Shown here: in pieces, positions 13,127 through 51,630 of the stretch
Layout of the letters: each line of letters starts with the position of its first letter
Numbering within the stretch: the first letter of the stretch is position 1
Assembly: GCA_963836755.1 (NCBI GenBank)
Contig: CAWIKF010000002.1
Coordinates: forward strand, 1,536,001-1,600,000
Source of the DNA: an uncultured Verrucomicrobiae bacterium
GTDB taxonomy: Bacteria; Verrucomicrobiota; Verrucomicrobiia; Chthoniobacterales; Chthoniobacteraceae
Length of the DNA stretch: 64,000 nt
Reading direction: 5' to 3'
Notes under the pieces: generated by a model
What the model saw: the letters and a program-made list of their open reading frames with translations, nothing else
Database searches by the model: none
Told to the model about the DNA's origin: nothing
Translations under genes and position numbers: made by a program

Positions 13127-13294
13127 GGGCGAAAGGCGGTGGCGCGGGATGAAAACCGTGACTGGATAGAATCGCCTCGATGGAGAGAAAGTGGGCTCCG
13201 ATGGAGACAAAGTTGGCCGTTGGAAGGGCAAAACTGCCCTCAAACCCTGCCAGAAGGCGACTTTTCCCTGTTTTAGCCGGGCAAAGCTCGCTCG

Positions 13295-13588
13295 GGAGCG
13301 AACAAACCGCTCCCGGGAGCGGATTAACCGCTCCTCGGAGCGAACAAACCGCTCTCGGGAGCGGACGAACCGCTCCTCGGAGCGGACGAACCGCGCTTCG
13401 GAGCGAACAAACCGCTCTCGGGAGCGGATGAACCGCGCTTCGGAGTGGATGAGCCGCGCTTCGGAGTGGATGAGCCGGGCTTCGGAGTGGATGAGCCGCG
13501 CTTCGGAGTGGATGAACCGCGCTTCGGAGTGGATGAACCGCGCTTGAGAGTGGGCGAGCCGCGCTCGGGGGCGGATGAACCGCGCTTA
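13295..13588. repeat. Tandem array of 14 x 21-bp units, consensus ~GGAG(C/T)GGAYGAACCGCGCTTC, with weaker 21-periodic sequence upstream (~13160-13240)
   Basis: Units read directly, e.g. GGAGCGAACAAACCGCTCCCG / GGAGCGGATTAACCGCTCCTC / GGAGTGGATGAGCCGCGCTTC. Confidence 0.95.
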
Positions 13589-22470: not shown

Positions 22471-22866
22471 TCAGCTTTTCGGCGACTCGTGCAGCCCGAT
22501 GATCGCCCCCTGCGGATCGGCGATGATCGCGATGCGCCCCACCTGCGGAATCTCCTTCGGCGGCAGGCAAACCGTCGCTCCGAGCCGCGTCGCGTGCGCC
22601 ACAGTCGCCTCCACATTTTCCACCACCACGTAATTCGTCCACATCGTCGGCGCGCCCGGCTGCGGCGTCTTCATCACCCCGCCAAACGCGCTCCCGCCGT
22701 GCTTGAACATCGTGTAATCATGCTCCGGCATCGGGAACTTCTCCGTCTCCCAGCCGAAAAGCTCCGTATAAAAAGCGATCGCGCCCGCCGGGTCGCCCGT
22801 CACCAATTCATTCCAGCCGATCTCGCCCGGCTGCATGCAATTCCCGCTGCTCGATTCATTGCTCAT
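22471..22866 (-). CDS. VOC/glyoxalase family protein
   Basis: GEIGWNEL…FYTELFGW…GRIAIIADPQGA. Confidence 0.88.
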   Translation of the reverse strand: MSNESSSGNCMQPGEIGWNELVTGDPAGAIAFYTELFGWETEKFPMPEHDYTMFKHGGSAFGGVMKTPQPGAPTMWTNYVVVENVEATVAHATRLGATVCLPPKEIPQVGRIAIIADPQGAIIGLHESPKS

Positions 22867-22999
22867 AAAAGCGAAATGCCACAGGCCGGCGCGCGCGTCC
22901 AGCCCGTTCTCGGTGCGAAAAAATCGCGCCGCGCGAGATTGCCCATTGACGTGCAGCATGTGAAACAATAGACCACACGCCGTGATGTGGCATGGCGAG

Positions 23000-23335
23000 G
23001 TCGGCAGCATGATTTCCCGCATGGCGATTCAAACCCGCCCGCTCGCCGGCAAAACTTTTTCCATCGGAGCCGTCGCGGATGACGTTGCGCCCATCATTTT
23101 CAAAGTTGCCGCGCGAATGGGCTGCGTTGCCATCGAAACGGACGACGTTGCGGTCAAAACTTTTCACGTTGCCGCCATCATTTTCAAAGTTGCAGTCCTC
23201 ATGCGCAGCGTTGCCACCATGATGCGCAACGTTGCCGCCGTAACCGATGAAATTGCCGCCGAAATTGCCGCCATTGGAGCCGTAATTTTTGACATTGGAA
23301 CGCTAATTTTTGAAGTTGTGACTTTTTATCCAGTC
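23000..23335. repeat. Degenerate 21-bp-period array (~16 units) with a conserved RTTG(C/G) anchor and variable 16-nt remainder
   Basis: GTTGC recurs at 23084, 23105, 23126, 23147, 23168, 23189, 23210 and 23231; ATTG at 23252, 23273 and 23294; GTTG at 23315. Confidence 0.88.
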
Positions 23336-23336
23336 A

Positions 23337-23363
23337 ATAAATCGCTAATCGGTAGTGGTTTAC
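23337..23363. promoter_or_regulatory. Imperfect palindrome (protein-binding or tyrosine-recombinase-like core site)
   Basis: ATAAATCGCTA-ATCGG-TAGTGGTTTAC; TAAATCGCTA matches the reverse complement TAAACCACTA at 8/10. Confidence 0.45.
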
Positions 23364-23401
23364 ATTAAATCCGCGCCAAAAGCGCAAAAAACACCAAAAA
23401 T

Positions 23402-24210
23402 ATGCCAGATCCAACACCCACACCCGCCCCGAAATCGAAACCCGCCGCCCGCTCCATCGCCAACCGCGCCTTTCTAAACGAAATCGCCGACGCCCGCACC
23501 GTCGCCACCGCCGCGCTCGACCCTGCCAATACCGCCGCCCTCGCCGAGGCCGAGCTCGACCCGGCCATTCCCGGCCAGATCAACGCCCTCGCCACCAGCA
23601 TCGAGACCGCGATCAACGAAATCACCGGCGCGCGCGGAAACACCAGCATGACCGTCGCCCAGCAAGCCACCGCGCGCGAAGCCATCCTCACCGCGCTCTC
23701 GCCGATCCAGACCGCGGCGAAGCGGAAATTCACCGGCGACCAGGAAAGCCAGCGCACCGCCTACGGCATCGCCGAGCCGCTCGCCAGCATGGAGTTCGAC
23801 CTCTTCCTCACCCTCGCCACCGGCGCGCTCGAGCGCCTCACGCCGGACACCAGCACCACCCCGCCCACGCCGCCGGTGGATGTCCTCCCCGGCATCAACG
23901 CCGTCAAAATCACCGCCCTCAGCGACGCGATCGACCTCTGCGGCGGCAAGAAACAGGAGCGGACGAAAAACCAGGAAATCGCCGAGCAAAAACTCGAGAA
24001 AGTCAAAACCGACATCGCGCACCTGGCCGCCTTGCGCCGCGAAGTCAGCTCGCACGCCGAACAAGCCACCCCTGGCGCACCCCCGGCGTAGCCATCACCC
24101 GCAAAAGCTTCCTCCTCCCCGAAGACAGGCCGCTCCCGGACTGCTCACAAGTCCGGATCGTGTTTCGGAGACGCATTGAGACGACCTCTTACCTGTCTTT
24201 GATGATCTAA
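23402..24210 (+). CDS. Uncharacterised Ala-rich alpha-helical protein with an apparent -1 frameshift at ~24068
   Basis: 229-aa ORF to 24091. The -1 frame continues PWRTPGVAITRKSFLLPEDRPLPD in the same C-rich codon style until ~24141, with a stop at 24210. Confidence 0.7.
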
Positions 24211-24711
24211 GCGTGACATCCTCGCATTTGCTGAAAGCTTCTTCTAGTTCTGGGCAGTCCTCGATTCTACGAGCGCCTGTTCCCTCCTGAGGACGTCGCG
24301 ATGAGTTTCGGCCAGCGTATACAGCCGTTGACTTCTCCCGCTTCCACTGCGTTCGGTTCTGCCGATGCTTCGTTCAGACTTCGGATTGTGAGTGCCGGCG
24401 AAGACTTTCCTCGCCTTTACCAAGCGACTGGCTTTGTGGCTCAACCCAATTAACTATTTCGATCATCGCCTGCTACAGTCCCACATTCATTTGCTCGATA
24501 CCGTGGCACTCGTCAGCGACCTGCCTGAATTAAATCTACATTGCCGGTGAGGTTGGCGCTGTTGATCGAGGTTCTTTCCGACGACGCTTTCGACGGTCGA
24601 GTTTGTGGATCGAATCCGGCCACACATACGGTATTGCATAACGCTCCGGGCTAATCAGCATCATCGCGCTGCACATCAAGGGACACACGCTCAGAACGAT
24701 CGCTCAAAGTC

Positions 24712-24772
24712 GCCTAATCATTGCGACGCAACTGACTGGCTCCGTTCGTAGCTGAGCTTGTTCTCGTTAGGC
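24712..24772 (+). repeat. attC-like site 1
   Basis: R'' GCCTAAT…GCAACTGAC…GTAGCTGAGCTTGTTCTC then R' GTTAGGC (GTTRRRY); 61 bp. Confidence 0.75.
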
Positions 24773-24794
24773 GTCATTCGTGTATTCTGAAACT

Positions 24795-26263: not shown

Positions 26264-26537
26264 ATGACATCCAAGCGCGCTATTTTGCTTCTGCTCATTC
26301 CGATCAGCGCCTTTGCGCAAACGCCAGATTACGATGCTGCGATTCGCGATGCGACGGAGCGTTATCGCGGCGACGTCCCGACGAAGCGGGATCTTTCTTC
26401 TAAGCCGCTTGTTGTTCCGACAGTCGAATTCGATAGCACCAATACTGAAGTTTTTGGCGCAAGGCAGTTTTCTTTGGAAAACACGGTTCCAGATCATCCA
26501 ATTCCCAGCCGATGAGCTTTCTCGCTGCATTGCCTGA
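26264..26537 (+). pseudogene. Secreted hypothetical cassette ORF, probably frameshifted or truncated
   Basis: Signal peptide MTSKRAILLLLIPISAFA. Frame 0 stops at 26515, while the +1 frame stops at TGA 26535-26537 inside the attC R'' box, as cassette ORFs often do. Confidence 0.45.
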
Positions 26538-26598
26538 CCATGCGATGCAGCTAATCGGTTCTTCGTAACAAAGTTGGCTGAGTTTCTTCTCGTGAGGA
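26532..26598 (+). repeat. attC-like site 2 (degenerate)
   Basis: GCCTGACCATGCGATGCAGCTAA…GTTGGCTGAGTTTCTTCTCGTGAGG; end-to-end similar to site 1, with R boxes mutated. Confidence 0.65.
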
Positions 26599-26648
26599 AA
26601 CTTTTCGCGCGCTTGCCAATGCGAGGTTTTGCAAAGCATCCTTCGCCA

Positions 26649-51420: not shown

Positions 51421-51630
51421 GGATTTTTGCCACCAAGCCTGGGATTTTCGCCGTCCAACGTGGGATTTTTGTCGCCAATCCTAGGATTCTCGGCTCCAAG
51501 CGTAGGATTTTCGCCTCCAATCCTAGGATTTTTCCAATCCATCCTAGGATTTTTGTCGCCAATCCTAGGATTTTTCCAATCCAGCGTAGGATTATTGACG
51601 CCAGTCCTGGGATTTTGCCATCTGCGCGGG
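51421..51630. repeat. Tandem array of 10 x 21-bp units, consensus ~GGATTTTTGTCGCCAATCCTA
   Basis: GGATT every 21 bp from 51421; several junctions form the palindrome (A)ATCCTAGGAT(T). Confidence 0.93.

Follow-up and report, generated by a model that had tools for sequence, protein, structure and literature searches.

What does a row of degenerate 21-nt units do directly upstream of an orphan helical gene inside a urease operon? The module in question lies in the 64,000-nt window (the whole stretch of DNA analysed), within a ~4-kb block that separates ureF from ureG, two genes that are adjacent in two congeneric genomes; the operon sits on a contig of 2.25 Mb. A Glyoxalase/VOC-family gene (22471–22866, minus strand) is divergent from the module and belongs to the same inserted block.

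The array and its flanking elements

The array occupies positions 23040–23333 on the plus strand. Across 23040–23330 the identity at a lag of 21 nt is 0.567, compared with a mean of 0.319 and a maximum of 0.430 in 10,000 codon shuffles, and autocorrelation peaks occur at lags 21, 42 and 63 only, confirming the 21-nt period that the initial annotation had proposed. Unit alignment places a core of 11 anchored units at 23082–23312, with decayed units at the ends. The RTTG(C/G) anchor and its phase are real, the anchor being present in 11 of 14 in-phase units (about three others have decayed) rather than in the approximately 16 first counted. Each unit had also been described as an anchor followed by some 16 freely varying nucleotides; this description does not hold, since the 11 core units agree with a single consensus at 12–19 of 21 positions and all 21 columns are partly conserved. 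Some parts of units do recur out of order, as had been noticed, at 23091/23175 and at 23050/23155, the former pair reflecting an 84-nt block match of 82% identity. The units are not palindromic (dyad z 0.4–0.9), and the array shares no more 9-mers with its own gene (1.9) than with other genes (2.2). The array is a degenerate tandem repeat, not a constant anchor plus spacer.

A promoter-like element at 22946–22974 on the plus strand, composed of TTGACG, a 17-nt spacer and a weak −10 hexamer (TAGACC), is directed into the array. The element is located where it had been reported, and TTGAC recurs on the sense strand 30–230 nt upstream of the array at 22 of 37 loci, many of them from one clade, compared with 2/37 on the antisense strand and 1/37 inside the gene; a strict sigma-70 scan nevertheless rejects the element at 22946–22974. 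The array keeps one orientation and lies downstream of this promoter-like site, ahead of the start codon. A 27-bp palindrome said to follow the array reduces to a 10-bp stem with two G–T pairs (23338–23362, −8.0 kcal/mol). This stem is not conserved: seven changes at 23337–23359 break it in a close variant, represented by one low-depth contig for which 10 of 14 differences are listed. The site (23338–23363, plus strand) is that of a linear post-array family motif (23345–23363), found at 24 of 40 loci with a pattern derived from the same loci, and the motif may resemble an IHF-type site.

Other short repeats accompany the arrays of homologues. Loci L005, L013, L029, L062 and L078 carry 7-nt tandem repeats and REP-like hairpins after the array, just before the start codon. 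In loci L177, L180, L238, L240, L248 and L252, perfect microsatellites with units of 4 or 8 nt lie ahead of the array region; they follow TTGAC where one is visible and possibly constitute a phase-variation switch. Apparent 16-nt periods are in reality 4- or 8-nt microsatellites.

The helical rod family and its arrays

The gene at 23402–24091 (plus strand) encodes a protein predicted to be an all-helical rod with an internal duplication. Family members are about 240–250 residues long, and this copy ends early through a frameshift at ~24046–24069, the family C-terminal motif continuing in another frame (24046–24210, plus strand, with the stop at 24208–24210). Decay of this copy is plausible because none of 51 control gene segments is frameshifted and 5–6 of the 20 array-linked genes in the genome are, as judged by eye, broken or truncated; a local assembly error is possible.

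The gene had been described as belonging to no assignable family, and it proved to be both real and without a family match. Scans of the rod protein against Pfam, NCBIfam and PHROGs gave no credible match (Pfam returned only fn3, in one sister protein), PADLOC gave nothing credible for the family (1 of 139 members at 4e-4), and nothing in fold searches with the rod model reached E ≤ 0.001, the matches being generic helical bundles with a Z of at most 9.3. Similarly elongated, bimodular helical rods are found in the McpS and TorS sensor domains and the trypanosome HpHb receptor (4e40: Z 9.3, rmsd 3.3, 180 aligned; 2yfa: Z 7.6, rmsd 3.9, 181 aligned), values that helical bundles give in general and from which no homology or function follows.

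The structure model of homologue P0002, built on a 139-sequence alignment, has a pLDDT of 94 and is all helical, with two helices of ~55 residues; no known DNA-binding motif was seen in the predicted fold. The N-terminal half matches the C-terminal half with 68% probability (E 4.7e-5). The rod family also aligns over 180 columns (probability 94%) with another two-module family linked to arrays, one that has a weak internal repeat (E 0.006). Among the conserved charged columns 12 are basic and 5 acidic, with Arg-237 invariant; the conserved residues of the 139-sequence consensus are M, A, L, G, R, Q, P and F. Tail variants occur in the set P0194, P0126, P0203 and P0051: two homologues have Lys-rich tails, one has an FN3-like tail, and in P0051 the array frame is fused to the gene. 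The family comprises 98 close matches and 612 clusters at 50% identity (E ≤ 0.001). Homologous loci are mostly from Verrucomicrobiota according to record titles, the distribution is patchy, with members in 5 of 41 related genomes and in 13 of 251 genomes of the class (own genome counted), and no relatives were found in viral contigs, phages or plasmids.

Flanking periodicity was examined in homologues. Among 93 loci fetched, 60 have a placeable start, 55 of these are distinct, and 49 have at least 500 nt of upstream DNA. A 21-nt array precedes the rod gene at 44 of the 49 loci, the remaining five having none, and follows it at 0 of 45. The link to the adjacent gene family suggested by the initial annotation is thereby supported, and the pairing of array and gene stands. 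The genome contains 63 arrays, 20 of which precede helical or helical+Ig genes, assigned by eye to a few families, and 43 of which are solo.

The window itself contains two solo arrays (13174–13586 and 51421–51616), the first of which stops ~180 nt before a tRNA-Phe gene; tRNA proximity of arrays shows no clear enrichment (6 versus a mean of 2.6 and a maximum of 8). Downstream of the 23402 gene, integron attC-like sites with small cassette-like ORFs are present at 24711–24773 and ~26530–26606. The genome has 84 attC-like sites and one integron integrase; a co-oriented attC lies within 2.5 kb downstream of 5 of the 20 gene-linked arrays, and 8 of the 63 arrays overall have one nearby, versus a mean of 4 and a maximum of 11 in random placements. 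The genome contains 31 copies of the 8-mer TTACTCTG. Of these, 18 are no more than 400 nt away from one of 17 arrays, on both sides of the arrays and in both orientations; the 8-mer is found at array ends of G000 (e.g., C1:29995, C1:630456 and C2:713759) and bounds the homology of some solo copies. At C1:273670 and C2:923924 of G000, an array has been duplicated with its leader and no more than the opening codons of a paralogue; one copy continues into an FN3-like remnant and the other into an attC site. Two congeners used for an empty-site comparison of four solo arrays are too distant to inform it.

Coding, RNA or duplex DNA

Whether the array is coding was the key test because seven codons, 21 nt and two DNA turns are the same length; it was applied to 40 non-redundant arrays. 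In the window, a heptad-reading frame is open through the array (22982–23368, plus strand), of which translation is doubtful. An unlikely reading, albeit the likeliest of the alternatives, is that such frames are translated as a heptad leader (L-x-x-N/D-V/P/A-D/G/E-A/T) and that the peptide, or translation of its rare Leu codons, pairs with or controls the downstream protein. With 8 in 2443 codons versus 18.7 expected, stops are rarest in the sense frame, but 8 of the 40 arrays contain an in-frame stop and a second frame is likewise depleted, making this null a lenient one. The sense-frame pN/pS of 0.66 is the lowest of the six frames, compared with 0.24 for genes of the same pairs, and no antisense coding signal was detected in the arrays. 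The synonymous excess over 11 pairs (58/159 versus a null of 0.289, p 0.0025) falls to p 0.07 in well-aligned units, and differences are distributed 78/78/88 over the codon positions. Codon-level conservation of the 22982–23368 frame, originally read as VAxxxxx heptads, thus amounts to a weak coding signal. The Leu slot is CTA or TTA in 215 units, codons used for 10 of 827 Leu residues in genes; Pro, the commonest residue in heptad slot 5, counts against a heptad peptide. In one clade, 17 of 18 sequences have an in-frame ATG and the 5′ part shows indels of 3 or 6 nt, P0051 is a database protein with array and gene in one frame, and all three listed array changes in the low-depth variant contig are third-position synonymous; on the other side, the rod family as a whole has no conserved start or stop of the array frame.

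Off-period steps between units in homologues (10 of 20 nt and one of 22 nt among 380) are ±1 in 11 of 11 cases, and those in this genome (33 of 20 nt, five of 22 nt, three of 19 nt and one of 24 nt among 644) are ±1 in 38 of 42; no 18-nt step occurs in either set, and 20-nt units form runs at more than one locus. Because the phase slips by ±1 rather than ±3 and the synonymous share is 0.37 in arrays versus 0.73 (139/191) in genes, the array is unlikely to be an ordinary gene. A translated leader is possible, against which stands also the fact that most arrays in the genome are solo.

It is improbable that the array works as a 5′ leader RNA that is bound by the protein or cut to 21-nt small RNAs or an antitoxin. 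Such an RNA would suit the fixed orientation of the array between promoter-like site and start codon, a position from which it would be transcribed and which counts against DNA docking sites; the palindromic units of a sister class could form hairpins, and the protein has conserved basic residues. Nevertheless, a consistent RNA structure is not borne out in the rod family (mean folding z −0.66 on the sense strand, with 4 of 21 folds below −2), Rfam has no match for the array, and no terminator-like site is found on the sense strand between array and gene. Nor do the units behave as anchor-plus-guide elements, their 16-mers matching host and phage DNA only at chance level: the mean match of 11 unit 16-mers to the host genome is 14.5 versus 14.25 for random genomic 16-mers, perfect host matches number 1 in 11 versus 1 in 60, and the best phage match has an E of 0.09 in a collection where Verrucomicrobial phages may be poorly sampled.

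Unit symmetry provides a further distinction. In this genome, dyad z is 1.7–4.8 for units before helical+Ig genes (9 arrays) and −1.1 to 2.3 for those before two-module genes (10 arrays). In outside genomes, arrays were found at 16 of 25 helical+Ig, 17 of 26 rod-family and 12 of 24 related two-module loci with enough upstream DNA, and dyad z exceeds 2 in 13/16, 0/17 and 0/12 of them, respectively; 2 of the first 40 rod homologues also exceed 2. The p value of this contrast overstates it because few families are contrasted. Profile comparison reveals no link between the helical+Ig and rod families. Dyad mismatches in 25 arrays are G–T in 108 cases and A–C in 118; mismatches with no G–U preference, and hence no RNA-strand bias, are expected of duplex DNA rather than RNA. 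The symmetry pattern points to reading of duplex DNA, by a pseudo-dimer in the two-module case and by a homodimer, itself an assumption, in the helical+Ig case.

We also doubt a reading in which the array is a minisatellite maintained by slippage, or else a small mobile repeat, that accompanies the gene but is unread by its product. Arrays diverge nearly as fast as synonymous sites, 43 of 63 are solo and many of these share units with gene-linked arrays, two copies carry only a gene start, and a shared motif marks 18 array ends, all of which speak for such a repeat. What it leaves unexplained is that the same period is held before proteins of ~25% identity and before unrelated families while the unit sequence is replaced, that the array is never downstream of the gene, and that symmetry tracks the protein class. 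The units of five rod-family paralogues are identical at 8–13 of 21 positions, about as alike as shuffles (9.2), and the early claim of a period kept despite sequence drift is supported.

Of the two functions first envisaged for the array, a phased protein-binding lattice fares better than processing into short RNAs. We give an even chance to the array being a self-binding, helically phased DNA lattice, that is, a row of predicted docking sites for the rod protein. The non-coding array would present duplex-DNA sites two helical turns apart, to be read by the rod protein encoded downstream. The rise per helical residue is 1.5 Å; one pseudo-dimeric rod with helices of ~55 residues (~8 nm) could thus cover one 21-bp unit (~7 nm). 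Loading would be cooperative and would occupy a single face of the DNA, and the loaded rods would dampen transcription of their own gene. Each unit would diverge together with its protein, which would keep the paralogues of a genome orthogonal; solo arrays would provide additional loading sites. The cellular role, the least supported step, may be guessed to be that of a patchily spread, birth-and-death DNA-coating module. More tentatively, we propose that these modules could form an undescribed class whose reader, a helical rod of fixed length, recognises a single two-turn unit, homodimers having palindromic units and fused pseudo-dimers asymmetric ones, and in which dozens of orthogonal pairs and solo arrays per genome would make up a self-encoded, re-specifiable DNA-coating code.

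Relation to known repeat systems and significance

In plasmid centromere/operator arrays such as parC–ParR, a downstream gene encodes the protein that coats a tandem array over the promoter region, as proposed here for the rod array. The two differ in that no partition ATPase is found among the scanned ORFs neighbouring the rod gene and in that many orthogonal copies are present per genome. The resemblance to TIGR-Tas, type III toxin–antitoxin and CRISPR systems consists in a repeat array adjoining a protein gene. TIGR-Tas arrays have a 36-nt period and a Nop-domain protein; the period here is 21. A Nop-domain protein is not among the matches listed in the family or fold searches of the rod protein. 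Type III toxin–antitoxin loci have RNA repeats, a terminator before the toxin gene and an endoribonuclease toxin, to which the missing sense-strand terminator and the inconsistent RNA folds do not correspond; the family and fold searches of the rod protein gave no match to any family, such a toxin included. CRISPR repeats measure 24–48 bp (PMC3733652); the present array has no repeat/spacer split and its units have no targets above chance. The initial exclusion of CRISPR and of a 36-nt TIGR array was therefore sound.

Iteron arrays with their Rep proteins (P1, F, R6K and RK2) are phased direct repeats of ~17–22 bp, a range that includes the 21-bp period of the array; insertion of a half turn abolishes their cooperativity, and IHF sites occur in iteron origins (PMC4980987). 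In contrast to the iteron–Rep systems covered there, the array is chromosomal and multi-copy with degenerate units, and the rod has two long helices and no beta-wing. The P0002 model (pLDDT 94) contains no strand of at least three residues and thus no winged-helix initiator feature; instead of a plasmid origin, the setting is a urease operon on a 2.25-Mb contig with no plasmid match. REP/RAYT REPtrons, as documented in PMC3733652, are dispersed intergenic repeats of which some copies lie beside a dedicated gene, a distribution shared by the present arrays. They differ in that the rod consensus has no conserved His and represents neither the HUH motif nor the catalytic Tyr of these enzymes, and in that the 21-nt units are head-to-tail and non-palindromic.

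No description of such a module or of its intergenic repeats was found in the literature listings and abstracts covered, mostly from outside subscription journals, and the module, real and family-wide, is apparently undescribed. New here are the family of all-helical duplicated proteins, the test based on ±1 steps and the rule on unit symmetry. Even on the rival explanations, the module would be a widespread and uncatalogued one. If the preferred reading is true, the symmetry rule is testable and dozens of unannotated intergenic repeats per genome would be explained; if the protein reads its own array, its fold would be new among those that recognise DNA, and the 612 clusters of the family would amount to natural libraries of orthogonal protein–site pairs.
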